64,000 bases of DNA from a virus (taxonomy: Duplodnaviria > Heunggongvirae > Uroviricota > Caudoviricetes), in IMG/VR virus record IMGVR_UViG_3300042892_003674, one strand, 5' to 3'. Positions 9 to 61,684 of the stretch are shown one piece after another. The notes below the pieces were generated by a model that worked only from the letters and a program-made list of their open reading frames with translations, had not been told where the DNA came from and did no database searches. Made by a program: the position numbers and the translations under genes. Within the stretch, counting starts at the first letter, position 1. Each line of letters opens with the position of its first letter.

Positions 9-1112
9 ATGTCGGATGGTGTTCTTGGAAATACTAGAACAACACCATTTACACATTTAGATGCTATATATGGAACTGTAAGTGGATGGGCTAGTCGTAG
101 TATGCAATCCGTAGTTGGTAAATATATTGACTTTGGTGGTGCTTATTATAATTCAACTGTCCAAGCAGGTAGAGATGAAATTACTGGTTATGGTTGGATT
201 CCTCGAGATAATTTAGTATCAGTTGGTTATTCAATTGGTGGCCCAACTGGTTCATCAGTTACTTTCGCGAGTCTTGGTGTAGGTAAATTTCCTCAAGGTA
301 TTATTACAGACAGTTTAGATAATGTTTATGTATATAATTCAGGTGGTTCTCCTAATACTATTATTAAGATAACACCGTTAGGAGCGACTAGTAATTTTAC
401 GAATATAACAGTTGGATCAACCGGTAGAATGACCATAGATAGTTCGGATAATATTTATATACCATTAACTAATAATGATACAGTTGGTAAAATAAACCCT
501 GCTGGTGTTTTAATAGCAACATATTCAACAGGAGACCAACCATATTCTTGTGCACTTGATAGTAATGGTAATCTATTTGTTGTAAATTCACAATCAAATA
601 ATGTTACTAAAATAACACCAGGTGGTACATCGAGTGTATTTGCCAATGTTGGGACAAGTCCAACTGATGTTGTAATTGACGAATTAAATAATTTATATGT
701 TATGAATAACATGAGTAGTAATATATCTAAAATCACACCAGGTGGTACATCAAGTATATTTGCCAATGTTGGTTCGGGTATATTTTCTTATAGTATTAAG
801 AGGGATAGTATCGGTAATTTTTATGTTGTTGATTTCGATAATACGGCAAGTGTTGTCAAAAAAATCACACCAGGTGGTACAGTAAGTACCTTTGCAACCT
901 TAGGTGCTTGGTGTCAATATATAGAGATAGATGTAAATGATAATTTATTCGTCAATGCAAGAAATAATAATTATATTTATAAAATAACACCAGGTGGTAC
1001 ATCGAGTGTTTATGCTACAACTGGAATGGGCCCTTATGCAATTGCAATTGATAGTTTGGGTAATAAATATACCGCAAACTATAATGATAATAATGTTACT
1101 AAAATATCATAG
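9..1112 (+). CDS. NHL/Vgb-like beta-propeller repeat protein (possible virion fibre/receptor-binding domain); may extend upstream of the window
   Basis: About 6 repeats of P-x-x-I-x-I-D-S-x-x-N-L-Y-V...KITPGGTSS-V-F-A; the frame is open back to the window edge. Confidence 0.7.
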   Translation: MSDGVLGNTRTTPFTHLDAIYGTVSGWASRSMQSVVGKYIDFGGAYYNSTVQAGRDEITGYGWIPRDNLVSVGYSIGGPTGSSVTFASLGVGKFPQGIITDSLDNVYVYNSGGSPNTIIKITPLGATSNFTNITVGSTGRMTIDSSDNIYIPLTNNDTVGKINPAGVLIATYSTGDQPYSCALDSNGNLFVVNSQSNNVTKITPGGTSSVFANVGTSPTDVVIDELNNLYVMNNMSSNISKITPGGTSSIFANVGSGIFSYSIKRDSIGNFYVVDFDNTASVVKKITPGGTVSTFATLGAWCQYIEIDVNDNLFVNARNNNYIYKITPGGTSSVYATTGMGPYAIAIDSLGNKYTANYNDNNVTKIS

Positions 1113-1352
1113 TATACCTAAGTATTTTAACTTTTTATTACGTTCTTCTGCTTTGTTTACTCGTTTGAAACTATCACTATAGAAACATTCAGTGTAACCT
1201 AAATCATTTTCAATAAGATAACTTTCTTCGGAAGAACCTTGTTCTATTATATTATAAATACCGACTTGATACTCTTTACCAGTAGTAAGAGTATCATAGT
1301 AGTCGTCGATATAAACAACGGTAAATGTTCCGTATGCTGATCTATTAGTCAT
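1107..1352 (-). CDS. hypothetical protein with C-terminal RxxKLxxL motif
   Basis: Start re-called to ATG 1352 (TAATG overlap with the upstream stop); ends EERNKKLKYLGIL. Confidence 0.7.
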   Translation of the reverse strand: MTNRSAYGTFTVVYIDDYYDTLTTGKEYQVGIYNIIEQGSSEESYLIENDLGYTECFYSDSFKRVNKAEERNKKLKYLGIL

Positions 1353-2047
1353 TATGAATTTATCATATAGTTTGATAAGTCTTGCCAAGTATTCTTGTAA
1401 GAATGTCTAATTTTAGACACCATTATCAATGTTCTAAGGTTTAAGTTATCACTTTCTTTATTCTCTGATAAGAATTTTAAAGCATCTTTCTTAACAGCTA
1501 ACTCATAGTCTGGTAAGATATTAGGTAAGATGTATTCCATTCTTTCAATTTTTTCATCTGGTGTCATACTCAAATCAACAGTTAAACTTCTTGATAAAAT
1601 AGCACCATCGATTTTAGATTTGTCTTTATTAGAGATAAAGATAATTCTTCCAGTGAAGTCAAATGATTGTGGATAAACATCTGCCTTATTCATACGAGCA
1701 GACCAAGTGATTGTTCTTTTTTCGTAAGAGTCAAGTGCTGATTTTAAGATGTTTAAAGCCACTTTATCTTCTAAAACAGAGTCACAGTCGTCAAAAACGA
1801 TTAGCTTTCCGTTATTATCATATAAAGTATTGTAAAGACCTCTTGCAGTTGAGTAACCTTTGATGAATAAGAAGTTATTTTCATCAACATCATTACCTTT
1901 AATAGTTGCTGTTACAGAGTGAGTTTTACCCAAACCTCCTTCACCGGTCACGATCAATGATGGTGTGATGTTGGTAACTACCATAGTAGTTAAGTCACTT
2001 AAAAAGTCGAATTTTTGATTTATTGTAAAGTCTGTAGTTTTTGTCAT
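1352..2047 (-). CDS. AAA+ family P-loop ATPase
   Basis: Walker A GEGGLGKT, Walker B LIVFDD, sensor FISN, arginine finger ILSR. Confidence 0.85.
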   Translation of the reverse strand: MTKTTDFTINQKFDFLSDLTTMVVTNITPSLIVTGEGGLGKTHSVTATIKGNDVDENNFLFIKGYSTARGLYNTLYDNNGKLIVFDDCDSVLEDKVALNILKSALDSYEKRTITWSARMNKADVYPQSFDFTGRIIFISNKDKSKIDGAILSRSLTVDLSMTPDEKIERMEYILPNILPDYELAVKKDALKFLSENKESDNLNLRTLIMVSKIRHSYKNTWQDLSNYMINS

Positions 2048-2065
2048 ATCTCTTATTTTGTTTTA

Positions 2066-2073
2066 CAAAGATA
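2066..2073 (-). promoter_or_regulatory. Bacteroidota-type sigma70 -7 element TATCTTTG
   Basis: TAnnTTTG 18 nt upstream of ATG 2047. Confidence 0.65.
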
Positions 2074-2133
2074 GTAAAAAAATACTAATAATTAAATTTA
2101 ATATATATAAATAAACAATTAAAACTATAAATT

Positions 2134-2316
2134 ATGGTTAAACTAATCTTATTGTCATTATTAGAAATGACTAGTAAAAAAATTGTAATGACTACAGGGA
2201 AAAAAGCACCTGTTAGTGGAATCTATAGAAGTGGAAAAGAATACATTCCTCTATCAAAAGGAGAAAGATTTCCTCCTTCTATTGATTTAAAATGGATATT
2301 GGTAGTAAGTATTTAA
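2134..2316 (+). CDS. YjzC-like small protein (true start may be 2188)
   Basis: TGKKAPVSGIY...IPLSKGERFPP matches the YjzC-like pattern. Confidence 0.6.
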   Translation: MVKLILLSLLEMTSKKIVMTTGKKAPVSGIYRSGKEYIPLSKGERFPPSIDLKWILVVSI

Positions 2317-2329
2317 TTAGGTTTAGTAC

Positions 2330-4326: not shown

Positions 4327-5153
4327 TAGACATAGATTATTCAAACGGAAAGATTAAGATAAACACCGGTGATTTAGCTGGATTATTCACTAATCTACCT
4401 TTAAAATTTAAAATAAAGAAAGTTATTTCAAAAGAAATAGTTTGGGAAACTGACTTATATAGTTTTATGTGGGCGGAATTTGGTACAAATGAGATCAATG
4501 ATGTTATCGTAGAAGATAGTTTAGGTAATTTTGTTTATCAGTATCACTGGGATGTAATTCAACACGGTTCTATCTTTTATAAATCATTGTGGTTATATTG
4601 TAAGTCATTGATAAATCGTGGTGTGAAACCACGTGGAGTTGTTGTGGGAACACATGATGGAGAGTTTGGTGAATGGGTTCCATTAGTGAGAAACTTTATG
4701 TCTGATATGTTATTAGTAGAAGCATCACAGAAACAATTTGATAAACTTCATCAGAACTTTATTGATAAACCAGGTATTATATTTCTAAATGATTTGATTA
4801 CAACTGATGGCTCTGATGTTGAGTTCTTTGAAGGTGGTGCTGGTTACACGAATACTGTGGTTGAGAGAGTTATTAGACATTGGGAAACAGAGGAAGTTCA
4901 TTCATCAAAAAGAACATCGACTAGTTTTAATACTTTGATTGAGAGCTATGGTAAGGTTGATTGGTTACATTTAGATGTAGAGGGATTGGATGCAAAGTTA
5001 TTGATGTCATTAAAGGAAGAGAATATACCTAATTTTATAATCTTTGAAGATTATAATTTGGACACTGAAGAGTTTAGTAAAGTATCTACTTTTTTTAAGG
5101 ATAGAGGGTTTAGATTACATTCGGAAGGTGGAATATGTATGGCTTTTAAATAA
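4323..5153 (+). CDS. FkbM-family methyltransferase
   Basis: VVVGTHDG SAM loop, LLVEA, DWLHLDVEGLD, IIFE. Confidence 0.8.
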   Translation: MIDIDYSNGKIKINTGDLAGLFTNLPLKFKIKKVISKEIVWETDLYSFMWAEFGTNEINDVIVEDSLGNFVYQYHWDVIQHGSIFYKSLWLYCKSLINRGVKPRGVVVGTHDGEFGEWVPLVRNFMSDMLLVEASQKQFDKLHQNFIDKPGIIFLNDLITTDGSDVEFFEGGAGYTNTVVERVIRHWETEEVHSSKRTSTSFNTLIESYGKVDWLHLDVEGLDAKLLMSLKEENIPNFIIFEDYNLDTEEFSKVSTFFKDRGFRLHSEGGICMAFK

Positions 5154-5535
5154 AAAACCATCCAGATGGGTTATGTGATATATAATATTCTGATAAGGAT
5201 AAATATAATCTAACTTCTTCTTCATCAGCACCAGTCATATCCATTATTTTATGCTTAATAGTAGGATATTCAATCTTTATTTTATATAAAGATTCTTGAA
5301 TTCTATTAAATAAGTTAGATCTCATCTCAACTCTTTTAATGAATTCATTTATTGAATTGGATAAATTGATTGATGAACTATCTGCCATATCAATAGTAAT
5401 CTCACAAGTTTTATTATCTGTGTGAAACTTAATTATAAAGTTATCTTCGTCGATAAAATCAACGAAACACATTTCAATATAATCTTTATCAATTATATCT
5501 TGGTCTATATTTTCAAATAGTTTTATGTATTTCAT
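5146..5535 (-). CDS. putative capsid-packaged protein (CTS-like N-terminus)
   Basis: MKYIKLFEN; FVDFIDED motif. Confidence 0.65.
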   Translation of the reverse strand: MKYIKLFENIDQDIIDKDYIEMCFVDFIDEDNFIIKFHTDNKTCEITIDMADSSSINLSNSINEFIKRVEMRSNLFNRIQESLYKIKIEYPTIKHKIMDMTGADEEEVRLYLSLSEYYISHNPSGWFFI

Positions 5536-5536: not shown

Positions 5537-6019
5537 TTATATTTCGTTTTTAACTATTGTAATTGAAATTGATATAAAGTCTCTACTCCATACTTTTTCA
5601 TCTAATACATGAAAGTAAGTATCATTTGCAGTAACTGCGTCTTGTCTAATAATCTTCTCGATCTTTGCACCATTCCATCTTCTGTCTAACAAAGCTAGAA
5701 GTGTTTCAAAACAGTCAGTTATCTTATCTTTAAATTCTTCGGACTTATTGTTCTGTACTGTTCTTTGGAAATCTACTACATCTTCATCTTGGTCCTTATG
5801 TCTTACAAGTCTAATATAAACAACATTACATTGATTATAACTTTCAGCCATACGAGTTGTATAATCATTGATACGTGACTTAACTCTTTGTTGTAATAGA
5901 ATTTGTGGTGAAAATCCTTCATCTATCAAATCAACAAAAATCATTTTAATTGTCTCTCTGAATTGATCTAGTTCTTCTTTACCTTCTTTTAACGATTCAA
6001 GTGTTTTTACGTATCTCAT
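5537..6019 (-). CDS. putative capsid-packaged protein (CTS-like N-terminus)
   Basis: MRYVKTLES; FVDLIDEGF motif. Confidence 0.65.
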   Translation of the reverse strand: MRYVKTLESLKEGKEELDQFRETIKMIFVDLIDEGFSPQILLQQRVKSRINDYTTRMAESYNQCNVVYIRLVRHKDQDEDVVDFQRTVQNNKSEEFKDKITDCFETLLALLDRRWNGAKIEKIIRQDAVTANDTYFHVLDEKVWSRDFISISITIVKNEI

Positions 6020-7301: not shown

Positions 7302-7364
7302 ATTGTATATATTAAAGTTTTTAAACTAAAAGTAATTTTTTAATATAAAAAAGAAAACACAATT

Positions 7365-8214: not shown

Positions 8215-8574
8215 TTAAATAATGAATAAACTTTCTAATTTATATTCTCTGATTTCTGTTTTAAAAAGTGCGTTTAAATCCAACTCACCTAATATACAAA
8301 GGTCTCTATCATTTAATGACAAAGTATATGTAATACAATTATCAGAGTGTATTTTTATGAATAGTGGAGTTGCTAATCTAACAACTGCATCTAATCTATC
8401 ATTACCACTTTGTAGTTTGTGGTAGTTTACTATATTTTCATAGCAAGGTTGACTCTTACTAATAAAACCATCATAACATACTTTATATAAAGTGTTACCA
8501 TTAGGTTCTAACCCTAAGTGTTTAAGTATTGTGTAATCTAATGCTTTTGTCAATCCTTTCATTTCTCTAATCAT
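8215..8574 (-). CDS. hypothetical protein with C-terminal RExKL motif
   Basis: Ends IREYKLESLFII. Confidence 0.7.
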   Translation of the reverse strand: MIREMKGLTKALDYTILKHLGLEPNGNTLYKVCYDGFISKSQPCYENIVNYHKLQSGNDRLDAVVRLATPLFIKIHSDNCITYTLSLNDRDLCILGELDLNALFKTEIREYKLESLFII

Positions 8575-8781: not shown

Positions 8782-9015
8782 TTATTTTAAATTTTCATTA
8801 AGTTTCATTTTTTCCAATTGTTCTTTAAACTCTTCAATAGTTCTAAAGGAACTTATAGGTGCGGCAGAAACAATTTTCTTATCATTTACAACCCAATGAT
8901 ATCCAGTATCATATATATCAGGATCATTTATAAAACGATAAACCCTTCCATAAGTAAAGTTGTGTAACTTCTTACTGGTACAAACCATTAAACCTTTAAT
9001 AACTCTTACTATCAT
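8782..9015 (-). CDS. hypothetical protein
   Basis: 77-aa ORF with ATGA overlap to the upstream gene. Confidence 0.65.
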   Translation of the reverse strand: MIVRVIKGLMVCTSKKLHNFTYGRVYRFINDPDIYDTGYHWVVNDKKIVSAAPISSFRTIEEFKEQLEKMKLNENLK

Positions 9016-9350
9016 TTTAAAATTTCAATAAGTTTTTCGTTTCTAATATTTTGTAATGATAACATTTCTTTACCGAAGTCAGTCAGTTCATAAGTTATGT
9101 GCCAAGCGTCTTCAACATGATCTATTAAGTTATATTTTAATAGTTCTGAAGTTAGGTAGTAAGTACCACCGTGATTACGATTTAAAAAATAATCTTCTGT
9201 TTGAAAGGTAGTTTTATCATCATCTACACGAAAATCTTCTAATGATTCCCAACGAGTATCTCTATACTCTGCGTAACCTTCTTTCTGAATAGAAAGTAAG
9301 AGAGTATATGCGTCATCAGATAATTCAAATGTGTACGTAAATGTTTTCAT
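9012..9350 (-). CDS. hypothetical (winged-helix-like) protein with C-terminal motif
   Basis: YELTDFGKE; ends IRNEKLIEILK. Confidence 0.7.
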   Translation of the reverse strand: MKTFTYTFELSDDAYTLLLSIQKEGYAEYRDTRWESLEDFRVDDDKTTFQTEDYFLNRNHGGTYYLTSELLKYNLIDHVEDAWHITYELTDFGKEMLSLQNIRNEKLIEILK

Positions 9351-9354
9351 ATAG

Positions 9355-9406
9355 CAAATATAATAAAAATAATTTTAAATATATTAAATAATTTTACATA
9401 TATTTG
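9355..9406. promoter_or_regulatory. divergent pair of Bacteroidota-type promoters
   Basis: TATATTTG on the minus strand (9355-9362) and the plus strand (9399-9406). Confidence 0.7.
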
Positions 9407-9418: not shown

Positions 9419-9625
9419 ATGAAGAATATACTATACTTTTCTAGTTTATCACCAGTTGAAAGAGTTTCATTCATAGAAACATTACCTTTCTGTGAATTGG
9501 TAGTACTTAGAAATATATTAGAAGAAACTTATCAACAAAATGGTATGTGGGAAGCTTATGTAATTCAATGTGATAAAGAAATAGCAAAACGTAGAGAAGA
9601 TAAAATAAACGAAATATTAAAATGA
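9419..9625 (+). CDS. hypothetical protein with C-terminal motif
   Basis: Start re-called to MKNILY; ends RREDKINEILK. Confidence 0.7.
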   Translation: MKNILYFSSLSPVERVSFIETLPFCELVVLRNILEETYQQNGMWEAYVIQCDKEIAKRREDKINEILK

Positions 9626-10326
9626 AACCAAAATTATATTATAGAGTAGATGAAAATGGTGTACCGTTCGATAACTTTTGTTCGGATGCAGCCATTGGTG
9701 CCAATGATGCAGGAATTGAATGTATTCCTTTCTCTGACATAAAACAAGTCAATATGAATCCTTACAACATCGTTGTAACATCTGTTGAGGAATCGCTAGA
9801 GTGGTTATGTCAAAACATTCAGGCAATTGATGATAAATGGGCCACTGACTTTAAGAAAAGAAAAGAAGTTATTACAACTATAGATGAAATAACTGAGTAT
9901 CCTTGTTTTATCAAACCTTACAAACATATTAAAGCATTTACTGGTATTGTTGTGAGTGATGTAAGAGAAGCTAAGTTATTCACACAAGATTTTAAAGATA
10001 GTGTTTCTTGTCAAGAGATTGTAGAATTTGAATCTGAGTACAGAGTTTATATTCATAAAGATAGAGGTATCTTAGGAGTTAAACATTACTTAGGTGATCC
10101 TTATATTGTACCTGATAAATCTTTTGTTGATGAGATTTATCAATTGTCGAAGTCTAACTTAGATCAAAATAGTTATACATTAGATATTGGTATAGATGAT
10201 AAGGGAACTAACTATTTGATTGAAATAAATGATGGTTGGTCAGTTGGTAATTATGGTTTGAACCCAAGTGATTACTTTAGTTTTGTTAAATCTAGATGGT
10301 TACAGATAACAGGAATTTTAAAATAA
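9622..10326 (+). CDS. ATP-grasp protein (R2K/DUF4343-like)
   Basis: PCFIKP, KAFTG, SEYRVYI, YTLDIG, LIEINDGWSVGNYG. Confidence 0.8.
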   Translation: MKPKLYYRVDENGVPFDNFCSDAAIGANDAGIECIPFSDIKQVNMNPYNIVVTSVEESLEWLCQNIQAIDDKWATDFKKRKEVITTIDEITEYPCFIKPYKHIKAFTGIVVSDVREAKLFTQDFKDSVSCQEIVEFESEYRVYIHKDRGILGVKHYLGDPYIVPDKSFVDEIYQLSKSNLDQNSYTLDIGIDDKGTNYLIEINDGWSVGNYGLNPSDYFSFVKSRWLQITGILK

Positions 10327-10331: not shown

Positions 10332-10892
10332 ATGAGTAATAAGTTTAAGTTTATTTTATTCCATTTTTTTGGAATTAGTTTGGTTATTTTAGGTGCAATT
10401 TTATGTACTTATTTAGGTAAAATATGTCTTAAAGATGAGAACTCTGGTTTACCGGAGTTGTTTTTCTCCGGTTTATTCTTCTTTTTAATATGGTGTTTAA
10501 TAACAAATGGTCTTATAGGTGGTGCCATAATGGATGGTAAGAAAAGTATATTTAACTATCTTTTGAATTTTAAGAGATATAGAAATATAAAATGGATTTA
10601 TCATTCTGAGTTAGGTTATTTCCCATCAGTAATCGGTAAGAAAAAACTTTTATTATATAGACAGAATATATTTACGGTAGATGAACTATTGGATATAGAT
10701 ACTAGTGGTCGTAGTATAAAGTATATATCTGATACTGCTAAATCTCACTTAGATTGGCTTTATAAAAATCAATTAGATGATAATAAAAGAGCAGAACAAA
10801 TTAAGGCTAAGAATGATGAAATTAGAAAATGGGATGGATTTTTAGATGTTCCTTCACGAAGAGATAAAAAAATAGACGAACTACTTAAATAG
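10332..10892 (+). CDS. two-TM membrane protein with C-terminal motif
   Basis: Two hydrophobic segments; ends RRDKKIDELLK; start re-called to MSNKF. Confidence 0.7.
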   Translation: MSNKFKFILFHFFGISLVILGAILCTYLGKICLKDENSGLPELFFSGLFFFLIWCLITNGLIGGAIMDGKKSIFNYLLNFKRYRNIKWIYHSELGYFPSVIGKKKLLLYRQNIFTVDELLDIDTSGRSIKYISDTAKSHLDWLYKNQLDDNKRAEQIKAKNDEIRKWDGFLDVPSRRDKKIDELLK

Positions 10893-10909
10893 TTCGTCTA
10901 TTTTTTTTA
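10865..10909. terminator. long bidirectional terminator hairpin
   Basis: AAAAAAATAGACGAACTA-cttaaa-TAGTTCGTCTATTTTTTT between convergent genes. Confidence 0.8.
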
Positions 10910-11617
10910 CCATTGAAATGAACCTGCACTAGTACTTTCTACTATACCTTCAAATAAATCAACCCACTCTTTAGTAAATTCAAACTCTTCTTTATTATCT
11001 AAAATAAAGTCAATCTTTAAATCCCTTCTTTGAACTCTATTTCTAGAAACTTGCTCCCAATCTCTACTTTCTAATTTAGCTCTTCTATGTTGTGCTCTTT
11101 CATATGAGTACATTTGAGCATCTTTATTTTCACTATATTGTTTATTTAAACAATGTAAAATAGCAGACTCACAATTTTCATAGAGAACTCCATTGGACCA
11201 ACTCACACCACAACAACTAAAATCTACATTTCCTATAAGATTTTTAAAGTTATCTGCATAGTTTTGTTGTTCTGATTTATCATTTGACATTGATTGTATT
11301 CTAGGTCTAATCAATTGAACTACTTTAGTTCCTTTAATCCAAGTACGTGGTTCTGATATAACGTGTATTGTTGAATAAAGATTAGTAATGTCAACCGATG
11401 TAAGTTTTTCAAAGTGATGGTATCCATTTTTTTCTAAAATATATTCTAGTTTTCTAAGTGATTGTGCACCACATAAGATGTCAACATCATTGATTGGTTG
11501 GTCTGCAATACTATCACGAATTGCACCACCAAAGATTCTCACCATTGAGTCCATATAAAGTTGATTATTATCGAACTCTAAATACTCATTTAGTCGATCA
11601 TTTATTTTTTGTATCAT
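10907..11617 (-). CDS. poly(A) polymerase/CCA-adding-like nucleotidyltransferase head domain
   Basis: IFGGAIRD...INDVDI, VDF; carries the RRDLKIDFIL motif. Confidence 0.75.
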   Translation of the reverse strand: MIQKINDRLNEYLEFDNNQLYMDSMVRIFGGAIRDSIADQPINDVDILCGAQSLRKLEYILEKNGYHHFEKLTSVDITNLYSTIHVISEPRTWIKGTKVVQLIRPRIQSMSNDKSEQQNYADNFKNLIGNVDFSCCGVSWSNGVLYENCESAILHCLNKQYSENKDAQMYSYERAQHRRAKLESRDWEQVSRNRVQRRDLKIDFILDNKEEFEFTKEWVDLFEGIVESTSAGSFQW

Positions 11618-11686: not shown

Positions 11687-13072
11687 ATGAGTGAAATTAT
11701 AAAATTTACAGATTATACAGAAATAAATGAGAATGTTATAATACCTGTTGTTGATGCGGTTATTAGTGATAGTGGTATTCTTAATACCAAAACTGCTACT
11801 GGACTTCCTTTAAAAGGAAGTGTAGAGTTAAATACAATACCTGTTTTTGACATAGAAACTGGAAAGAAGGTAATGGCAGTTTCAAGAACAGTAGGACAAG
11901 ATTCAAAAGCACAAAAAACAAAGAAAGTTGTTTCTGGTATAAAGGGTAATGATGGTAAATATTATCCTGGAGGATTAGACAAAAACGGTACTTTAGTTGG
12001 TGTGAATTTTGATGAAAATAATTACTTATTGACACTAGGTGCAACTGAATCGAGAACAAGAATTCCTATAGATCCAGAATCACAATCAAAATTAGATACA
12101 AAGTATCAAGATATAGAATTTTGGAATAAAGATGTTGATTATATTAAATGTGTTCCAAATATATCAACTGGTTGGGTAAATGTTAAAATTGATATGGAAG
12201 TAATTAAAAGAGTTAGAAGATATTCTGCTGGTTTAGTTGAAAAAGAGAAAGCTAGTGATAATAGTCACTTAACATTTGTAAGTAAGTTAAAAAGTTTAGA
12301 TAGAATAAGTAATAGAACTATAAAAATTGATAATATTACTAGACAGAAAATTCAAAAACAAATGTCTGCAATTATTTTATTACATTATATAAATGAGATT
12401 AAAACATTCTTTACACCATCTGCAGCAGGTTTATTATTTGAATCATTTATAGGTGGTCTAATTCCGTATGCTAAAGTTACTGAAGATAATGGTAAGGCAG
12501 ATATTACAGTTCCTACTGATGATGGAAAAATCGAATATCAAGTTAAGTTATATAGTACTGCAGCACAGTACATAGATATTGCAGTGAATAGATATGATGA
12601 TGATTCTATTCATCCTAATAGGGAAGTACCATTAGATTACTACTTAATATGTATAAAGAAGAGTGATGAAGTTATTATTTATGTTTTAAATAATGATCCA
12701 ACTTCTCCTGGATATTATAGTAATTTTAGAACATCTGGTAGAAATAGTAAGTCAAAAACTTTTTCTGTTAATGAATTAAATAATAGTAAGCTAGATTTTA
12801 GAACTGGTACAAAATTTATTTTATCACTTACTAATTTAGAGGAAAGAATTAAAAACTTAGGTGATAGTTTAAAAGGATGTTTAGATGAATTATATCGTTT
12901 ATTGAGTCAGTTTCAATATAATGTTGAAACAATAATAACTGGTGTAGATCAGGATGGTAAAAAAGTTAGTGAAACAGATTTTTCAAAACATTCTACTGAT
13001 GCCACCAATAATGTGAAATCTATGAGTGAGAAACTGGATGAACTTATTAAAGAGGTCAACATTAATAGATAA
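11687..13072 (+). CDS. hypothetical virion-associated protein, possible PD-(D/E)xK nuclease-like domain
   Basis: IIKFTDYTEINE N-terminus; GLLFES...KADI...EYQVK. Confidence 0.55.
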   Translation: MSEIIKFTDYTEINENVIIPVVDAVISDSGILNTKTATGLPLKGSVELNTIPVFDIETGKKVMAVSRTVGQDSKAQKTKKVVSGIKGNDGKYYPGGLDKNGTLVGVNFDENNYLLTLGATESRTRIPIDPESQSKLDTKYQDIEFWNKDVDYIKCVPNISTGWVNVKIDMEVIKRVRRYSAGLVEKEKASDNSHLTFVSKLKSLDRISNRTIKIDNITRQKIQKQMSAIILLHYINEIKTFFTPSAAGLLFESFIGGLIPYAKVTEDNGKADITVPTDDGKIEYQVKLYSTAAQYIDIAVNRYDDDSIHPNREVPLDYYLICIKKSDEVIIYVLNNDPTSPGYYSNFRTSGRNSKSKTFSVNELNNSKLDFRTGTKFILSLTNLEERIKNLGDSLKGCLDELYRLLSQFQYNVETIITGVDQDGKKVSETDFSKHSTDATNNVKSMSEKLDELIKEVNINR

Positions 13073-13550
13073 TAGAATTTATTTTATGTTCTCTCATATC
13101 AATAAAGTATTCATTAAACTCACCTTCTGTGATATAAATCTTTTGATTTTCTGCAAATACTACTAAGTTTTCATTTGGAAAAAATCCTTCTAACTCACAA
13201 TATAAATAAGTAATACTAGGATAAAACTTGGCATTTGACTTTACTTGAAAGAATTTAGTACAAACACAGAACTTTGTTGGATATGGTTCACCATTATATT
13301 TAAAGATAAATGCTTCTAACTTTCTTTTCTTTAGAACCTTTACACGATTGTATATAATTACTTTATTATGAATTTCCTTCTTGTGTTTATCAAACTCTTT
13401 TACAAGTGGTCCTCTCTCTAATCCTAACTTATCCGCAAACTTCTCAGGTGAGAAACGGATGAAACCATTTAGTAAATCAATATTATCCTCATCAACATCT
13501 AAGTTTTTAACTTTTTCAATCCATTGATTTAATTCTTGTAAACTATTCAT
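13062..13550 (-). CDS. hypothetical protein with C-terminal motif
   Basis: Ends MREHKINSIIY. Confidence 0.7.
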   Translation of the reverse strand: MNSLQELNQWIEKVKNLDVDEDNIDLLNGFIRFSPEKFADKLGLERGPLVKEFDKHKKEIHNKVIIYNRVKVLKKRKLEAFIFKYNGEPYPTKFCVCTKFFQVKSNAKFYPSITYLYCELEGFFPNENLVVFAENQKIYITEGEFNEYFIDMREHKINSIIY

Positions 13551-47152: not shown

Positions 47153-47180
47153 AAATCACTCAAATGAGTGATTTTTTTTT
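47151..47180. terminator. bidirectional terminator
   Basis: AAAAATCACTC-AAAT-GAGTGATTTTT. Confidence 0.8.
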
Positions 47181-47598
47181 ATACTTTTAAAGAATTTAGT
47201 TTTTGAACTTCTCTATTATATCTAGCGGTTTCTTTTTGAACTTCACTATCTATATGTTGATTCCATTTTTCACTTATATCAATAACTACAAAGGCATATT
47301 GTGAAGTGTCAAAATTAAAAGATGTTGTCCATCTTCCATTTAGTATATAACCCTCTACTAATCTCATTGACTTACCTGAGTATTTAATATTTATTTTAGC
47401 ACATTCTCTACTTGCACCACCTAAAGTTTTATAAGCCTTTGTATGTAAGCTAATTTCTTTTTTAAGTTTACCATTTTTATTCCAAATAAACTCAAATGGT
47501 ATATCAAAAACTTCATCAGAGTCACTTAATAGTGACCCTAACTTAGCTTCTCTTTGTGCTGCTTTACTTACTATTGCTAGTGTATACATTTTACCCAT
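47179..47598 (-). CDS. hypothetical protein with N-terminal RExKL motif
   Basis: QREAKLGSLL near the N-terminus. Confidence 0.7.
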   Translation of the reverse strand: MGKMYTLAIVSKAAQREAKLGSLLSDSDEVFDIPFEFIWNKNGKLKKEISLHTKAYKTLGGASRECAKINIKYSGKSMRLVEGYILNGRWTTSFNFDTSQYAFVVIDISEKWNQHIDSEVQKETARYNREVQKLNSLKV

Positions 47599-48773: not shown

Positions 48774-48858
48774 TTAATTAAATTATTTTTTAATTATAGA
48801 AGAAAAGGAAAATAAGTTTTATTATTTAATATATAGTTTAATAAAAAGTTTGTATATT

Positions 48859-49290
48859 ATGAAATATTTAAAAATGTTTAATGAAATGTTAGATCCAATG
48901 GGAAGTTGGAATCCTAGTCAATTAGATAATAAAGAGGATGAGTACGATGGAGTACCTTCAAGTTATGATGAGGATGGTGAAATTATTATTGAAGATGATG
49001 CAGATGATTTTTGTACTAAATGTGATTGTATACCTTGTCAATGTACTGATGAAGAATATGATGAGGATTTAAGAGAGAATAGTAATAGAGGAACTTTTGG
49101 TTACTTTAATACAATGACTAAAGAAGAACTACTTGATTATCAAAAGAATTTTGAACATGATTTTGAAAATCCTGCTGAACACGATCCAGAATATGTAGCT
49201 TGGAAAACAGCGTGTGAACTTAAAGGATGTTTTGAAAGAGAACCATTTGCACGTACTAGAAAAGAAAGTGAGTTTCCTAGTAAATACTAA
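48859..49290 (+). CDS. acidic protein with CTS-like N-terminus and Cys cluster
   Basis: MKYLKMFNE (start re-called); CTKCDCIPCQC. Confidence 0.7.
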   Translation: MKYLKMFNEMLDPMGSWNPSQLDNKEDEYDGVPSSYDEDGEIIIEDDADDFCTKCDCIPCQCTDEEYDEDLRENSNRGTFGYFNTMTKEELLDYQKNFEHDFENPAEHDPEYVAWKTACELKGCFEREPFARTRKESEFPSKY

Positions 49291-49291
49291 C

Positions 49292-49318
49292 AAAAAAGAG
49301 AGCTAATGCTCTCTTTTT
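49292..49318. terminator. bidirectional terminator, GAGAGC family
   Basis: A6-GAGAGC-TAAT-GCTCTC-T5. Confidence 0.85.
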
Positions 49319-49595
49319 ATTTTAAAATTTCGTTTATTTTTATATCACGTAAAGCTTTTCTACTTATCATATAACTTTTATGAACTTTTATAATTTGATT
49401 CCAACCTATACCATCTAATGAATGTGTTGCAACAAACAAATCATCATAAGTTATAGATTTTATAGTATATTCAACATCATCTTTTATTGATCTTGGATGT
49501 CCTCTAGAGTTTCTTCTAAAACAGATTACTTTATCACCTACTTTATAATCAACACTACCATTTTTTATATGTCCTATTAAGTTCCCAGTATCCAT
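49317..49595 (-). CDS. SH3-like hypothetical protein with C-terminal motif
   Basis: YKVGDKV; ends LRDIKINEILK. Confidence 0.7.
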   Translation of the reverse strand: MDTGNLIGHIKNGSVDYKVGDKVICFRRNSRGHPRSIKDDVEYTIKSITYDDLFVATHSLDGIGWNQIIKVHKSYMISRKALRDIKINEILK

Positions 49596-50608: not shown

Positions 50609-51189
50609 TATATGTGCATAAGTAAGTTAAATCTCATTGTTAAAGCAGATAAATCGTCTGCGTGTTTTTGTTTCTCATTTCTATTTGTAGAACTATCCTC
50701 AATCATTTTCAACTTCTCATTGATAACATAAGTGAAGGGTGTAATTCTAATACCATTTTGCTCAATAAACTCTGGTAATTCATCAACAATAATTAAATGA
50801 ACATCAACTGCACCACGTCTTATAATATCATCTGAATAATCAGGGTAAGAAGTCCAAAGTTGCTTCTTAATACTAATTACACTATCAGTTAAATTATACC
50901 TAAATTTAAAGTGATCACAGATTTGAAAAGCCATTTCCTTTGTAATTAAAAAGTCAAAGTCATTTGGTCTTCTATCCATCATTTCTTTACCATTTATACT
51001 ACAACACTTCAAAGCACGAGAACCGGTAAGTACACCACCAAGATTGGTGACATACTTAATCAGTTTCCAGTTAAGTTTTAAAAATTGATACTTACTTCTA
51101 CTTTTAGACGTATCATATTGAACATTATAACCACCGGTTAACATATTCAGATTGATGTCTCTCACGTAAGCCTTTAACGTCATTGTCAT
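50608..51189 (-). CDS. Pol-beta superfamily nucleotidyltransferase-like protein
   Basis: VLTGSRAL...PNDFDF...VDVH, KHADDL. Confidence 0.6.
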   Translation of the reverse strand: MTMTLKAYVRDINLNMLTGGYNVQYDTSKSRSKYQFLKLNWKLIKYVTNLGGVLTGSRALKCCSINGKEMMDRRPNDFDFLITKEMAFQICDHFKFRYNLTDSVISIKKQLWTSYPDYSDDIIRRGAVDVHLIIVDELPEFIEQNGIRITPFTYVINEKLKMIEDSSTNRNEKQKHADDLSALTMRFNLLMHI

Positions 51190-52148: not shown

Positions 52149-52152
52149 AATA

Positions 52153-52473
52153 CTAATTATTTTTATTTAGAATTAAATCTATTGCATTCTCTCTTAAAGT
52201 TTGTTTATTGACTCTAAAATTATGTTGTTTCTTTAATTTATTTATAAAGTGTTTAAAATTAGGTGGATAAAGTGTTATATCTCCCCATCTAGTTTTAGTT
52301 ATTGTTGGTTCTGTTAGTTTATTAAACCGTTTCTCATGTTTCCAAAGAAATAAAACATCATATTGTTTCTTTGGTGATAGTGATTCAAACCAAACAATAT
52401 TTTTACCCATCTTATTTCTAAGAGATTTCAATTCCTTTTTATGTTTTCTCTTTTTTCTTTCCTTCTCTAACAT
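52153..52473 (-). CDS. basic hypothetical protein with C-terminal motif
   Basis: Start re-called to MLEKER, 4 nt after TATATTTG (52478-52485); ends LRENAIDLILNKNN. Confidence 0.7.
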   Translation of the reverse strand: MLEKERKKRKHKKELKSLRNKMGKNIVWFESLSPKKQYDVLFLWKHEKRFNKLTEPTITKTRWGDITLYPPNFKHFINKLKKQHNFRVNKQTLRENAIDLILNKNN

Positions 52474-52491
52474 AGTACAAATATACAAAAA

Positions 52492-52848
52492 TTATTCTGA
52501 TTTTGGTAGAATTTGATTTAATTTAATTTCTCTTAACTCTTGTAAAGAAAAATCAATATATTCAGAAGAAGAAAGACTTATTGTATAATCATTATTAAAT
52601 GAATTTTTACCTACTATTCTATATCTTCCATTTTCTTGTGTCACTTTATAATCATCAGGTAGTTGATTAAGATCTAGAACATTATCATATCTATCCCAAA
52701 CAATTTCATACTTACCTATCTCTTTATATTTAAGAAGACCTTTAATTTGTCCTGTTGTATAAAGTTTTAAACCATTTAACTTTCGTCTGGTGTTTAACTT
52801 ATCTTTTAATTTTTTTATGAAATATGTTTTGAACAACGGACTATTCAT
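52492..52848 (-). CDS. hypothetical protein with C-terminal motif
   Basis: Ends LREIKLNQILPKSE. Confidence 0.7.
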   Translation of the reverse strand: MNSPLFKTYFIKKLKDKLNTRRKLNGLKLYTTGQIKGLLKYKEIGKYEIVWDRYDNVLDLNQLPDDYKVTQENGRYRIVGKNSFNNDYTISLSSSEYIDFSLQELREIKLNQILPKSE

Positions 52849-53311
52849 TGATAATTGTTTTTAGATCTGCTGGTGAATAACCCACAGATTTTAAAACTTT
52901 ATCATCTTCTTCTCTGTAAACTAACCACTTACCATTATTTTCTTTATAGTAACCTCTTGTACCATCTTTTTGTTTATAATGTTCTATTGTTTCTTGTGCT
53001 TCTAACTCTGAATTACAAGCTTTGGACATATTACTTCTTTGTACTTCATTGAATAATTCAACAAATTTATCTCCTAGTCCAAACTCTAATACTGCACCAC
53101 TTAAAACATATTGTAAATCAGCTAAAGCATCCGCAATTTCAATCAAGTCATTATTTTCAATTGCCTCTTTTAATTCATTTAATTCTTCTTGTAGTAAGGC
53201 AACACGAAGCTCACATCTTTGTTTAGATGGTATCTGTGGTATATCTAAGATCGGTGCATTAAATGTTTTGTGAAATTCTGCTACTTGGTTTAATGAGTTT
53301 ATTTGTTCCAT
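52841..53311 (-). CDS. MazG/PRA-PH-like nucleoside triphosphate pyrophosphohydrolase
   Basis: VAEFHKTF, LLQEELNEL, IADALADLQYV, EVQRSNMSK, KVLKS. Confidence 0.9.
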   Translation of the reverse strand: MEQINSLNQVAEFHKTFNAPILDIPQIPSKQRCELRVALLQEELNELKEAIENNDLIEIADALADLQYVLSGAVLEFGLGDKFVELFNEVQRSNMSKACNSELEAQETIEHYKQKDGTRGYYKENNGKWLVYREEDDKVLKSVGYSPADLKTIINE

Positions 53312-53393: not shown

Positions 53394-54413
53394 ATGAGAT
53401 ACTTGAAAAAATATGAATTATTCAGAGAACCAGTAAATGAAGAATTTTTAGGTGCTTTATATAATGCTGCAAAGGGAGCGTTAAAAGCTTTTTTAGGTAA
53501 AATTTCAGAACCATTTAAAACTGCTAAAGACGAATTTAAAAAAGGAATGGCTAGAGAAGAAGTAAAAAAATCTATGATTACTAAGATGGATGCTTTACTT
53601 AAAGGAGCAACTGATGGAATTAATAAAGCAGAGGATGAGACTGCACTGAATGCAATGAGAGAAGATTTCAGAAAAGAAATTGATAACCAGATTGTAGAAT
53701 TTGATAAAGAAATAAAAACGGTTAAAGAATCAGTTAATACTATAAATGAGGGTAAAGTACAAGATGCTTTAATTGGAGCAAGAGTTGCCTTTGGTATGAT
53801 TAAGAAAAAATCAGCAGAGTTAAAATTAGAATTTGATAAGAAATATGCTGCGGCAGTTGATCTAGCTGGTAAGAAAAAAACCGCAATTGAAGAAATTACA
53901 ACAGTTGTGAATGATTTTAAGAAAACTGTTATGAATGATGAGATATTTAAAAAAGAAGAAGCTGAATATAAAACTGTAAATAAGATTGTTACTACTCCAG
54001 AATATAAAGTAGGTGATGAACTTATCTATTTAAGAAAAGGTCAACAAAAAACTGCATGGGATGCTTTAACAGATGAACAAAAGAAAGCACCAACTACTGA
54101 TCCTGCTGCAAAGTTGATAGTTAATGTTAAGAAAGTTGATAAAATAGAAGGTGATAACTATACGTTTACTGGTAAAGATGGTAAAACTATTGTTAAAACT
54201 TCGGTAGATATAATTGGTAAATCCGGTGCAGAGACTGGTGTAGATGTAACTGCAGATTTAACTAAAAAGTTAGGTGAACTTAAAACAAAAAGTCCAGATG
54301 AACTGAAAAAAGTTGCTAGTTTTGTTGATTTTATAAATAAACCGGAGAATGCAGATAAATACACTGAAATTGAAAAAATAATTTCTCCAGAAGCTACAGG
54401 AGCACAAGAATAA
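53394..54413 (+). CDS. helical protein with CTS-like N-terminus (internal head protein candidate)
   Basis: MRYLKKYELFRE.VNEE; further VKES and INE sites. Confidence 0.75.
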   Translation: MRYLKKYELFREPVNEEFLGALYNAAKGALKAFLGKISEPFKTAKDEFKKGMAREEVKKSMITKMDALLKGATDGINKAEDETALNAMREDFRKEIDNQIVEFDKEIKTVKESVNTINEGKVQDALIGARVAFGMIKKKSAELKLEFDKKYAAAVDLAGKKKTAIEEITTVVNDFKKTVMNDEIFKKEEAEYKTVNKIVTTPEYKVGDELIYLRKGQQKTAWDALTDEQKKAPTTDPAAKLIVNVKKVDKIEGDNYTFTGKDGKTIVKTSVDIIGKSGAETGVDVTADLTKKLGELKTKSPDELKKVASFVDFINKPENADKYTEIEKIISPEATGAQE

Positions 54414-59250: not shown

Positions 59251-59916
59251 ATGAAACATTTAAGAGTATTTGAAAATTTTGATAAAAAAGAAGATCAGTT
59301 TGATATTGAAAATGTTATGCTTTATATGGTCAATGTACTTGACAATTATAAAGTAAACTTCTTTGATGTTGATAATAATATGATCAATTCTAATGATGAA
59401 AATATAAATGACTTTCAACTAACAAAAGATTATCATAGTGTTAGAAGAAGTAGATTTATGGTAGAGATTATGCAAGATGGTCATAATCCAATAAGTATTC
59501 ACGAGGTTGCAGAGATTTCAATTGAAATGAGTACTACTATAAAACACTTAGAAAGAGAAGGTTGGATTTTATCTAGTTATCACCTTAATCAATCTAAAGA
59601 TAGAGATACTGGTAAAGTTGTATTCTATTATATTCATTATACTTTTTCAAAAGAAGATCAAGAAATTGAACCTACTAAAAGTTTACAAGATACTATATCT
59701 ACTAATACAATATTAAGAGCATTTAAAAAAGAAGGTATTGAAATTGAAAAACAAGATATTAAACATTTAGATGATTCTATTGAAATTGAAGATTGGTACA
59801 CTGAGTATCTATCAAATAATCAAGTAGAAGATTCTCTTGATAAAATAACAGATCTTTTAGGTGCTACTGAATGGGAATGGTATCATGGAACAAATGGTAT
59901 AAGATTTCAATTTTAA
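59251..59916 (+). CDS. putative capsid-packaged protein (CTS-like N-terminus)
   Basis: Start re-called to MKHLRVFENF, after TATATA at 59238-59243. Confidence 0.75.
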   Translation: MKHLRVFENFDKKEDQFDIENVMLYMVNVLDNYKVNFFDVDNNMINSNDENINDFQLTKDYHSVRRSRFMVEIMQDGHNPISIHEVAEISIEMSTTIKHLEREGWILSSYHLNQSKDRDTGKVVFYYIHYTFSKEDQEIEPTKSLQDTISTNTILRAFKKEGIEIEKQDIKHLDDSIEIEDWYTEYLSNNQVEDSLDKITDLLGATEWEWYHGTNGIRFQF

Positions 59917-60260
59917 GAATATAAAAAGTCTTGATATTTTTCTTCATCAGTTAAATCTATCTCAATAACACAATCTTTCTTTAAAGGTGTAGTAAATACA
60001 ACACACACAGATTTCAAGTATTCTGTTTGAATTCCATTCAAAAGTTCATCTAAAATTAAATCTCTTTCATCTTCTTTAGTAAGTTTCTCACCTGTGTCGA
60101 TATAGATGTTTATCTTCCACGGGAGACGTTTATTTACAAAAGTCATAACTGACTGCTTATAAACATTTGGTTGTCTTAATTGTCTTTTAAATGTAAAAAC
60201 TGCAAAGATTACAACTCTTACAATATAATGGTGATAAACTTCATTTATATCTAATTTCAT
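59913..60260 (-). CDS. hypothetical protein with internal motif variant
   Basis: ERDLILDELL. Confidence 0.65.
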   Translation of the reverse strand: MKLDINEVYHHYIVRVVIFAVFTFKRQLRQPNVYKQSVMTFVNKRLPWKINIYIDTGEKLTKEDERDLILDELLNGIQTEYLKSVCVVFTTPLKKDCVIEIDLTDEEKYQDFLYS

Positions 60261-60290
60261 TTAATATATATAAATAAAAATACTATATCA

Positions 60291-60689
60291 ATGAATATAA
60301 AAAAATATGTTGATGAATTTATTAGTGAGTATTCTAAAAAGTATGATTTAAGATTAGGTAAATCATTCAATAAAGAAAAGGCAAATTGTTCTTGGTTTAC
60401 CGATGTTTTTTATAAGTGGGCAAGAGAAAAGGATTTACCAGTCAAGGTAATTTATTTTGATTCTGATAAAGAAGCACATATTGTACCTATTATTGATAAT
60501 AAGGTTATTGATTTCACAATCAAACAATTTACTAAAAATCCTAACGATGATTATAAGATTACAAAGCCAGGATATTATAAAAAGTATGGTTATGATAAAT
60601 TTGAAATATTAGATAAAGTACCAAACTGGATAACAATTAGAAAGGCAGATAAAATACTTGAAAGAATAAAAAGATATGATCAGTTTTAA
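60291..60689 (+). CDS. small papain/transglutaminase-like Cys-His-Asp protein
   Basis: ANCSWF...AHIV...VIDFTIKQF. Confidence 0.55.
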   Translation: MNIKKYVDEFISEYSKKYDLRLGKSFNKEKANCSWFTDVFYKWAREKDLPVKVIYFDSDKEAHIVPIIDNKVIDFTIKQFTKNPNDDYKITKPGYYKKYGYDKFEILDKVPNWITIRKADKILERIKRYDQF

Positions 60690-60690
60690 C

Positions 60691-60721
60691 AAAAAACCCA
60701 CTAAATTAGTGGGTTTTTTTT
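60691..60721. terminator. bidirectional terminator
   Basis: A6-CCCACTA-AAT-TAGTGGG-T8. Confidence 0.85.
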
Positions 60722-61313
60722 ATTCATTAGCTTTTGCTTTCATTTGTTCAATTCTATCACGTACCTGTGCAGCGATTTCATATTCCTCACTTAAAACAGC
60801 TTGTTCTAACATTTTTTCTAAGTTTTCAATAGAAGTAGCTCTTTCCGTTTCCGTTTCTTCATCATCATCATCTGTCATATCACCAGATAAATTACTTCCA
60901 TCATCATTGATTAGGACTCCGGCAGAGTTCATAACATCAGATGAAACAAAAATCGGACAATCATGTAAAGAAGCTAGTATAACACCATCACCAATAGATG
61001 ATTCAATTTCTATATCTTCTAAACCATTAGTACAAATAATTTTAGTGTAAAAAATACCTTCTGCAAGAGAGTAGATAAAGACTTCTCTTATATCAATACC
61101 AAACGCGGTTGTCATTGATAAAAACAAATCGTGTGTTAGTGGTTTGGCAGATTTAATACCTTCCAAATCTAACGCAATACGTTGAGCATCTTGTGGTTTA
61201 ATTATTACTGGTAGCTTAACTTTCCCTTTCATTTCTGAAAGAACTAGTACGTAGGAACCAATTTGGCTTTGACTATAAGATAGTCCTAAAATTTTTACTT
61301 GTCTTTTTTTCAT
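60720..61313 (-). CDS. bifunctional nuclease (DUF151/BFN) with C-terminal UVR domain
   Basis: YVLVLSE..G..KLPVII, PLTHDLF, EGIFY; LEQAVLSEEYEIAAQVRDRI. Confidence 0.85.
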   Translation of the reverse strand: MKKRQVKILGLSYSQSQIGSYVLVLSEMKGKVKLPVIIKPQDAQRIALDLEGIKSAKPLTHDLFLSMTTAFGIDIREVFIYSLAEGIFYTKIICTNGLEDIEIESSIGDGVILASLHDCPIFVSSDVMNSAGVLINDDGSNLSGDMTDDDDEETETERATSIENLEKMLEQAVLSEEYEIAAQVRDRIEQMKAKANE

Positions 61314-61330
61314 TTTTTAATGTTATACTA

Positions 61331-61684
61331 TTATTTGTTTAATATACTTGAAAGTTTAAAATGTCTTTGGTACTCTTTTATACATGCATCATTTTTCTTA
61401 ATACAATTTAACATTTCTGCATTTGATTTAATTTCTATTTTTTCTTCTATGTTTTCTTCCTTCTTTAGATGTGATGATACGTTATAGAAACTACTACTTC
61501 TATTCGGATAACCTTTTTTATCTAAATCAAAAGTTCCCTTAGATTTAATAAAATAAATTTTATCATTTTCATATAGAATTGAATAAATTCGGTCTGTTCC
61601 ATGAAATACCCACGGATATTCTTTGGCCCAATGGTTTATAACCCAACCGAATTTATATAAAAATATTGTATTTATCTCAAACAT
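61331..61684 (-). CDS. hypothetical protein with C-terminal motif
   Basis: Ends QRHFKLSSILNK. Confidence 0.65.
   Translation of the reverse strand: MFEINTIFLYKFGWVINHWAKEYPWVFHGTDRIYSILYENDKIYFIKSKGTFDLDKKGYPNRSSSFYNVSSHLKKEENIEEKIEIKSNAEMLNCIKKNDACIKEYQRHFKLSSILNK

Follow-up and report, generated by a model that had tools for sequence, protein, structure and literature searches.

A portable C-terminal peptide tag on unrelated accessory proteins of Bacteroidota megaphages

Introduction

Why should many otherwise unrelated proteins of one phage carry the same short peptide, in most cases at the very end of the chain? The question is posed by a 64,000-nucleotide stretch of DNA (the window, by which we always mean this whole stretch) from the IMG/VR virus record IMGVR_UViG_3300042892_003674. 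A preliminary description of the window listed about 14 copies of a peptide with the strict pattern R-[DEN]-x-K-[IL]-x-x-[IL]-[IL] (here called the C-tag, or simply the tag). Portable address peptides are known from other systems, among them signal peptides, encapsulin cargo peptides and the capsid targeting sequence of phage T4. Here we show that the C-tag is genuine and portable, that selection acts on it at the level of the protein, and that it drifts in concert in each lineage. We argue that it is fairly likely to be a docking helix for one common reader, probably encoded by the phage. The window was compared with the relative LR745206 (635 kb, analyzed whole), a 508-kb IMG/VR relative (G006), a 271-kb relative (G010), and the records LR756501, LR756502 and LR756504.

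Results

With 29% G+C, the window is densely coding: 80 open reading frames (ORFs) were called. A six-frame scan with the strict pattern gave eight matches, all inside long ORFs and six of them within 4 residues of a stop codon. The 80 called proteins contain 6 strict and 9 relaxed copies no more than 6 residues from the C terminus; in 200 residue shuffles of the same proteins, the mean number of C-terminal copies was 0 for the strict and 0.05 for the relaxed pattern (maxima, 0 and 2, respectively). The observation made in the preliminary description is confirmed, and all 14 copies that it listed were found in frame in real ORFs. Its count is better given as 11 C-terminal copies (0-6 residues ahead of the stop codon), one near-C-terminal copy and three N-terminal or internal copies.

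Three of these copies are on the plus strand, each one residue ahead of the stop codon: REDKINEIL (9593..9619; ORF 9419-9625), RDKKIDELL (10860..10886; ORF 10332-10892, which has hydrophobic membrane-like segments) and a degenerate, uncertain copy absent from the earlier list, RWLQITGIL (10294..10320; ORF 9622-10326, ending in SRWLQITGILK-stop). The others are on the minus strand. A single residue separates RNEKLIEIL (9018..9044; ORF 9012-9350, 112 residues), REHKINSII (13068..13094; ORF 13062-13550, 162 residues) and RDIKINEIL (49323..49349; ORF 49317-49595, 92 residues) from the stop codon. The distance is two residues for REYKLESLF (8224..8250; ORF 8215-8574, 119 residues, no Pfam match) and RHFKLSSIL (61340..61366; ORF 61331-61684), and four for RENAIDLIL (52168..52194; ORF 52153-52488) and REIKLNQIL (52507..52533; ORF 52492-52848). 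At the C terminus of ORF 1107-1352, RNKKLKYLG (1116..1142, then IL-stop) represents a ...K-L-x-x-L-G-I variant, which recurs in orthologue pairs of LR745206 and G006. RDLKIDFIL (11000..11026) lies 30 residues from the end of a nucleotidyltransferase (10907-11617). REAKLGSLL (47527..47553; residues 16-24 of ORF 47179-47598) and RDINLNML (51136..51162; residues 10-17 of ORF 50608-51189) are N-terminal, and RDLILDELL (60039..60065; residues 66-74 of ORF 59913-60260) is internal.

In LR745206, 129 of 958 proteins end in the tag when an expression of the D/E/N type is used. A looser R...h..hh expression finds 140 of the 958, against 5.5 in shuffles, and a tight expression based on the sequence logo finds 74, against 0.05. 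G006 yields 138 of 784 proteins by the looser expression (4.7 in shuffles) and 120-138 of 784 overall, with the same logo. Tagged proteins thus make up 14-17% of the whole proteome in these two phages; the share is 21-25% among proteins of 60-150 residues and at most 7% among those of 150 residues or more. Carriers are spread across the whole genome, in arrays of small ORFs, and on a 210-kb Joint Genome Institute contig 7 copies fall within 21 kb. The LR745206 logo reads K(-4), S/Q/E(-3), x, h, R, D/E/N, x, K, I/L, N/D, x, I/L, L, followed by 0-6 mostly polar residues; the invariance of Arg is built into the regular expression by definition. D/E/N occupies position +1 in 87% of copies, K position +3 in 68% and N/D position +5 in 55%, while +6 is K in 26% and E in 16%. 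About 85% of copies lie no more than 6 residues from the C terminus, and the last residue of the carriers is variable (K, D, N, E and others).

Carriers evolve fast, and the tag stays. Reciprocal best hits between LR745206 and G006 were found for 12% of carriers, compared with 31% of other proteins; where a carrier does have an orthologue, the tag or a near-tag is kept, even when the bodies have diverged to 25-50% identity. ORFs 49317-49595, 52153-52488 and 61331-61684 all retain the tag relative to LR745206: it reads REAAIDLLL in the orthologue of the second, and EYQRHFKL..L is kept in that of the third, whose body is only 29.5% identical. All 28 aligned homologues of ORF 49317-49595 have the tag. 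Among the 120 homologues listed for the nucleotidyltransferase, nearly all have it too, in some cases with a degenerate end, and many stop exactly at it. Retention in orthologues, which the preliminary description had set as a check, therefore holds.

Copies away from the C terminus behave in the same way. The near-C-terminal copy of the nucleotidyltransferase and the N-terminal and internal copies are conserved in LR745206 orthologues, the last three as RDMRLDSIL at the same place (ORF 47179-47598), RDLNLSLI (ORF 50608-51189) and RDYLLEDIL (ORF 59913-60260). Genome-wide, 14 non-C-terminal copies compare with about 0.9 in shuffles, an excess of about 15-fold, and they are typically followed by N/D-G or acidic residues. 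Since internal and N-terminal copies are conserved and the last residues vary, a free C terminus is not needed. The conserved internal and N-terminal copies thus speak against recognition of the PDZ, tail-specific-protease or ssrA type and against a link to translation termination.

The codons at conserved tag positions follow genome-wide usage (Arg, p = 0.98), with the exception of an excess of ATA at Ile+7. The reversed DNA pattern gave 1-3 matches, compared with 25-30 for the forward pattern. Substitutions within the tag are conservative at the protein level (I/L/V, D/E/N). From the shuffles, codon usage, reversed pattern and orthologue retention, we conclude that the tag is a peptide signal and not a product of DNA or composition; the earlier remark that codons differ between copies and that conservation is at the protein level agrees with the genome-typical usage. 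An intrinsic-terminator-like hairpin at 10870-10905 (ATAGACGAAC...GTTCGTCTAT, then a T run) lies between the convergent ORFs 10332-10892 and 10907-11617, and its 5' arm is made of tag codons (I-D-E-L) of the former.

The carriers were described earlier as unrelated, and clustering agrees. With their tails removed, the 129 LR745206 bodies fall into 128 BLAST clusters; a profile round on 289 bodies from four genomes left 267 clusters, the biggest with 5 members. Pfam matches were obtained for 3 of 128 carriers and PHROGs matches for 13 of 128, 11 of these 13 being to families without assigned function. Carrier lengths range from 46 to 731 residues. The bodies are mildly acidic, ordinary soluble proteins whose charge, isoelectric point and hydropathy do not differ from those of non-carriers, and predicted membrane segments are fewer in tagged than in untagged proteins. 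The genes 3' of tagged genes are of all kinds.

The SH3-like, membrane and enzyme carriers of the preliminary description have counterparts in our models and annotations. AlphaFold2 predicts a beta-rich, possibly SH3-like body for ORF 49317-49595, and ORF 10332-10892 is the membrane-like carrier. The enzyme is the nucleotidyltransferase 10907-11617, minimal and CCA-enzyme-like, whose fold matches class II CCA-adding enzymes (template modelling score of about 0.45). Predicted helices cover the tags of the first (residues 79-91, a terminal helix) and of the enzyme (residues 194-206), with predicted local distance difference test (pLDDT) values of about 74-84. Homologues of the nucleotidyltransferase have weak precomputed matches to the Gad2 anti-Gabija family (PF26128). 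Many of its longer homologues have a second conserved end after the tag, ...K-H-E-S-V-Y-G-C-stop, and others stop exactly at the tag. Two LR745206 helicases, one of them UvsW-like, have internal copies. The copy in the UvsW-like helicase partly overlaps a segment, M-I-K-K-I-G, that T4 UvsW has as well, and for this reason we do not count it as a clean graft.

When the search expression left positions +1 and +3 free, lineage variants appeared. The +1 residue is D/E/N in LR745206 and G006, Asp in G010, Lys in LR756504 and Thr in LR756501. G010 has 37 copies (1.4 in the control), with Asp at +1 and without the Lys at +3. LR756504 has 109 copies (5.1 in the control), with Lys in place of the acidic residue at +1 and an acidic residue or Asn at +6; in 54% of its carriers the chain stops directly behind the tag. 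In LR756501, R-T-x-L-I-D-[KE]-M-L occurs about 14 times. Such a joint shift of the whole tag set is predicted by coevolution with one reader, and not by generic membrane binding or helix capping. In LR756501 (735 kb), 38 proteins (loci L222-L258, e.g., the L222:11314 region) end in another peptide, ...D-P-Y-G-E-E-x-W-x-x-stop, often after R-[VI]-[FY]-S; this ending is absent from LR745206, G006, LR756504 and G010.

The tag does not appear to be borrowed from the host. Across 12 Bacteroidota genomes (36 Mb), the pattern matched 72 times, compared with 68 in the control, and we rejected host mimicry on this count. As the tag copies no common host signal in these genomes, its reader is more likely to be phage-encoded.

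Tagged genes are also unevenly distributed between promoter classes. Two motifs dominate upstream regions of LR745206, TTAATATATA and TAnnTTTG, the latter sometimes with TTTG at about -33; we take TAnnTTTG to be the -7 element of the Bacteroidota primary sigma factor. Both promoter-like motifs peak at a start about 15 nucleotides ahead of the start codon, and leaders are therefore very short or absent. In LR745206, tagged genes are 25% of the genes in TAnnTTTG units and 4.7% of those in TAATATATA (TATATA) units (odds ratio 6.8, p = 1e-13). G006 replicates the contrast (23% versus 6%, p = 8e-7); both p values are optimistic, because genes of one transcription unit are not independent. The difference persists when only LR745206 proteins of 60-150 residues are considered (35% tagged versus 10%). 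Overall, tagged genes in these two phages are 4-6-fold commoner behind host-type than behind TATATA promoters. LR745206 proteins longer than 700 residues show the opposite bias, 20 of 28 being encoded in TATATA and 2 of 28 in TAnnTTTG units. An extracytoplasmic function-type sigma factor, SmpB, ClpP1 and MoxR are encoded in TAnnTTTG units. The TAnnTTTG units are presumably early and the TATATA units later. Conserved LR745206 genes behind host-type promoters also include those for a methionyl-tRNA synthetase-like protein, FolD and a CCA/polyA nucleotidyltransferase. Both motif classes are present throughout the window (e.g., 9351-9403, 7302-7364 and 33939-33996), LR745206 and G006, and some TAnnTTTG motifs have TTTG about 20 nucleotides upstream.

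A second tag, N-terminal and with the pattern M-K-[YH]-[LI]-K-x-[FY]-[EK]-x-[FY] (MKYLK.FE), marks the other class. We found 12 copies in the window and 88 in four genomes, on bodies that are otherwise different; wherever a promoter could be assigned, the unit was of the TATATA type, often in the structural block. The window carriers include ORFs 5146-5535, 5537-6019, 14637-15170, 15177-15551, 32565-33938, 33997-34632, 40024-40728, 40728-41513, 45992-46327, 48850-49290 and 53394-54413. The two tags never occur on one protein, barring one loose match in the window (at 9404) that we judge spurious. The N-terminal tag resembles the T4 capsid targeting sequence, MKTYQEFIAE. Many copies contain I/L-F-E, a possible gp21-type cleavage site, and a weak Peptidase_S77 domain was detected in LR745206 and G010.

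Proteins that might read the C-tag were sought among the phage genes. LR745206 encodes a ClpC homologue without Clp_N (L024:3224-5326, plus strand), aligning to residues 145-803 of Bacillus subtilis ClpC with E = 1e-239, and two bona fide ClpP proteins (L009:3559-4221 and L006:15122-15859, both on the minus strand). G006 encodes ClpC and ClpP, and G010 encodes ClpP without ClpC. Tagged genes directly adjoin those for ClpP1, ClpP2 and ClpC, and ClpP1 is behind a host-type promoter. Phyletic profiling for the reader failed: G010, LR756504 and LR756501 looked tag-free by the strict DNA pattern and carry variant tags, so that a close tag-free comparator is lacking. An MIT domain (PF04212) was not found in LR745206, LR756502, G006 or G010.

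The window is part of an uncultured Mahaphage-type megaphage, a phage of Bacteroidota. Its baseplate protein is 74% identical to that of LR745206, 72% to that of LR756502 (642 kb), 62% to that of G006, 50% to that of G010, 39-40% to those of LR756504 and LR756501, and 30% to that of Lak phages. The LR records represent the largest genomes reported by Al-Shayeb et al., 2020 (PMC7162821), assigned there to the Mahaphage clade with Bacteroidetes as predicted hosts. The nearest cellular homologues of the window's Prs are all from Bacteroidota. At the DNA level, the 10-kb stretch tested (43000-53000) gave zero matches to a phage collection.

Genes in the window include those for a T4-type baseplate wedge protein, a long collagen-like tail fibre, a Dam-type methylase, MoxR-like and other AAA+ ATPases, Prs, MazG-like enzymes and the small nucleotidyltransferase. 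The tail fibre gene (16514-21958, 1814 residues) has a G+C content of about 0.36, compared with about 0.28 in the remaining window. A sequence search with the AAA+ protein 25377-26468 yielded no solved relative. Genes at 60720-61313 and 61686-62333, for a bifunctional-nuclease domain protein with a C-terminal UVR motif and an RNase H-like protein, form one co-directional run with the MoxR-like ATPase gene (62633-63769) and the tagged ORF 61331-61684.

Discussion

Because the proteins that carry it are small, mutually unrelated and for the most part not late, the helix looks like an address or docking label. We propose that the tag would fold as an amphipathic helix of two turns, built on the core R-x-x-x-[IL]-[DN]-x-[IL]-L; its form in the present phage is K-[SQE]-x-h-R-[DEN]-x-K-[IL]-[ND]-x-[IL]-L, after which come 0-6 polar residues and the stop. 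As we picture it, this helix was grafted, in a clade of Bacteroidota megaphages, onto a large number of accessory proteins that are soluble, small, quick to evolve and not related to one another. Its Arg/Ile/Ile/Leu face may dock into a groove of one reader that contains an acidic pocket, and the carriers would thereby share one fate, such as the same location or a lifetime controlled in common. That such a single reader exists is suggested by the concerted drift of the tag. The preliminary description had seen a docking motif for one hub: portable docking is supported by the unrelated bodies, the retention in orthologues and the concerted drift, while the hubs that it proposed are candidates. 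For the scaffold in particular, a mostly non-late gene context and the separate N-terminal tag of the late class argue against such a destination; a capsid address is likewise unlikely, because the late class has its own tag and C-tag carriers are mostly non-late.

Several observations weigh against a single docking reader. The promoter association, whose p values flatter it, is only a trend in G010 and is absent from LR756504, where most tagged genes sit in units with neither motif. A scan of 60 core proteins for charge-swap covariation (Lys/Arg in the three Asp(+1)-type genomes versus Asp/Glu in the Lys(+1)-type LR756504) gave 61 columns, compared with 67 control columns, and no protein stood out. 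ClpP, the ClpC-like double AAA+ protein, MoxR and a DUF2201-VWA protein were considered as readers and set aside, since they are also encoded by megaphages that lack or barely use the tag; G010, moreover, is tagged and has no ClpC. No flexible linker ahead of the tag was found in the logo, and the moderate pLDDT of the tag helix is compatible with exposure or with packing on the carrier's own body. The phage Clp proteins may nonetheless be tentatively named as the first candidate.

If they were the reader, the tag could be a shared degron, which is a special case of docking: carriers would be delivered, directly or through an adaptor, to a Clp unfoldase-protease (phage ClpC with ClpP, or host ClpXP), and, being short-lived, would vanish once their transcription stops. 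The Clp genes of LR745206, G006 and G010 are in keeping with this, as are the tagged neighbours of ClpP1, ClpP2 and ClpC, the host-type promoter of ClpP1 and the presence of SmpB; basic and hydrophobic ends also recall the MuA class of ClpX signals. We nevertheless regard it as unlikely. The phage ClpC has no N domain, the part that recognizes adaptors and phospho-arginine, and its N-terminal 38 residues show no conservation in G006. With 14-25% of genes tagged, tagged neighbours of three Clp genes are fairly expected. Conserved enzymes (the UvsW-like helicase and the nucleotidyltransferase) are tagged too, and the variable last residues and distance to the stop, the conserved internal copies, and the occurrence of tags without ClpC and of Clp proteins without tags all point away from it.

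The helix might alternatively need no dedicated reader and act as a generic amphipathic element with affinity for membrane or nucleic acid, or pair with other copies so as to drive oligomerization or co-assembly. It has the required two amphipathic turns, which AlphaFold2 predicts as helix, with basic residues beside the hydrophobic face, and it is terminal like the helices of MinD and FtsA. We consider this improbable. The Arg is invariant, D/E/N is fixed at +1 as is N/D at +5, and +1 and +3 switch by lineage across the whole proteome, a far greater specificity than hydrophobic periodicity would call for. A helix of two turns is short for a stable bundle, and tagged proteins have fewer predicted membrane segments than untagged ones.

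A tag of about 10 residues at the C terminus of unrelated small proteins is also what encapsulin cargo would look like, and small fast-evolving carriers, one of them with a weak match to Gad2, would suit counter-defence proteins injected with the DNA. In such a virion-loading scheme, the tag would bind the procapsid interior or scaffold and the carriers would be packaged. This is highly doubtful, given that tagged genes are depleted 4-6-fold from the structural-gene TATATA units of LR745206 and G006, that there are none in the window's tail and baseplate block, that the late/structural class is marked by the MKYLK.FE tag, never found with the C-tag, and that the carriers are mildly acidic ordinary soluble proteins with no Gly/Pro-rich linker ahead of the tag.

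Most carriers have 60-150 residues and almost no family matches, as would be expected if they were one hugely expanded, fast-diverging family whose last helix is the sole recognizable remnant, the tag then not being portable. We rejected this at the sequence level by BLAST and profile clustering, and hold it to be very improbable: no relation emerged after the profile round, lengths range widely, folds differ (beta-rich and perhaps SH3-like, nucleotidyltransferase, helicases, membrane-like), and copies are also N-terminal or internal. Finally, a signal in the nucleic acid itself (such as a promoter, a terminator, an RNA site or a recombination site), or a side effect of A+T-rich codons at gene ends, is already contradicted, even though K/I/N/E/L-rich ends are expected at 29% G+C and the terminator stem at 10870-10905 overlaps tag codons, by shuffles with about 0.05 copies, one reversed match against 30, genome-typical Arg, Asp, Lys, Ile and Leu codons, conservative protein substitutions and neighbours of all kinds.

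Returning to a docking helix with one reader, a broader proposal, tentative yet one that we take seriously, is that Mahaphage-type megaphages may run a proteome-wide addressing code. More than 100 accessory proteins per lineage (non-late in the window's clade) would carry that lineage's own C-terminal helix, late virion-associated proteins the N-terminal tag, and at least one lineage the DPYGEExW ending, each read by a dedicated, coevolving, phage-encoded reader that sorts or times a protein class. The tag already offers a rule, based on sequence, for sorting megaphage genes into classes. If a single reader is indeed behind it, more than 100 dark-matter proteins would gain a handle at once, as to where they go or when they are removed, and this would hint at an unrecognized layer of organization in infections by the largest known phages. 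Once found, the reader could make the tag a short, genetically encodable label.

Our literature searches yielded no published description of the tag, in line with the earlier statement that no described family fits it, and it lacks defining features, among those tested, of each of the known portable address peptides with which we compared it. The T4 capsid targeting sequence (on IPI-III and Alt) is likewise a peptide of about 10 residues common to unrelated phage proteins with one destination. It is, however, N-terminal, removed by the prohead protease and found on proteins made with the head, whereas the C-tag is C-terminal or sometimes internal and depleted from late-type units, and no Glu is conserved at a fixed place after or inside it, in contrast to the (L/I)-x-Glu protease site of T4; the MKYLK.FE tag of these phages is the closer relative. 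Encapsulin cargo-loading and microcompartment encapsulation peptides are also short, terminal, often helical and portable, with one shell as reader, and the C-terminal peptide of about 10 residues on unrelated proteins is common to both. They have few carriers and another consensus, compared with hundreds of carriers per genome here. Positions -14 to -5 of the C-tag are not enriched in Gly, Pro or Ala, the helix starts about 4 residues ahead of Arg, and no shell-like neighbour of carriers was seen in the window.

Signals for ClpX and ClpA (ssrA, the MuA C-terminal class and the SspB XB peptide) are short and terminal, some of them basic and hydrophobic, and are read by an AAA+ protein or adaptor; those of the ssrA/ClpX type need the last 2-3 residues and a free carboxylate, whereas C-tag ends and spacing (0-6 residues) vary and internal copies are conserved. 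MIM1 helices of ESCRT-III, (D/E)xxLxxRLxxL(K/R), share the C-terminal amphipathic helix, a conserved Arg, a Leu/Ile face, several carriers and an AAA+ reader (the MIT domain of Vps4); they differ in consensus and are of far smaller scale, and the four tag-bearing genomes searched gave no MIT domain. Like the C-tag, the clamp-binding tails of T4 gp43, gp33 and gp55 and bacterial beta-clamp motifs are short C-terminal tails by which unrelated proteins reach one hub. They read QL[SD]LF or Qxx[LIM]xxFF, or are hydrophobic-acidic, and serve a handful of replication and transcription proteins, as against more than 100 carriers of unassigned function and only two helicases here. Helices of the MinD/FtsA type show periodicity with little residue-specific conservation, in contrast to the fixed +1, +3 and +5 positions of the C-tag, which switch by lineage. 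We are not aware of any phage with one address peptide on 14-17% of its proteome. New here, next to these systems, are the concerted drift by lineage, the comparison with host genomes, the split by promoter class and the finding that the C-terminal and N-terminal tags exclude each other.

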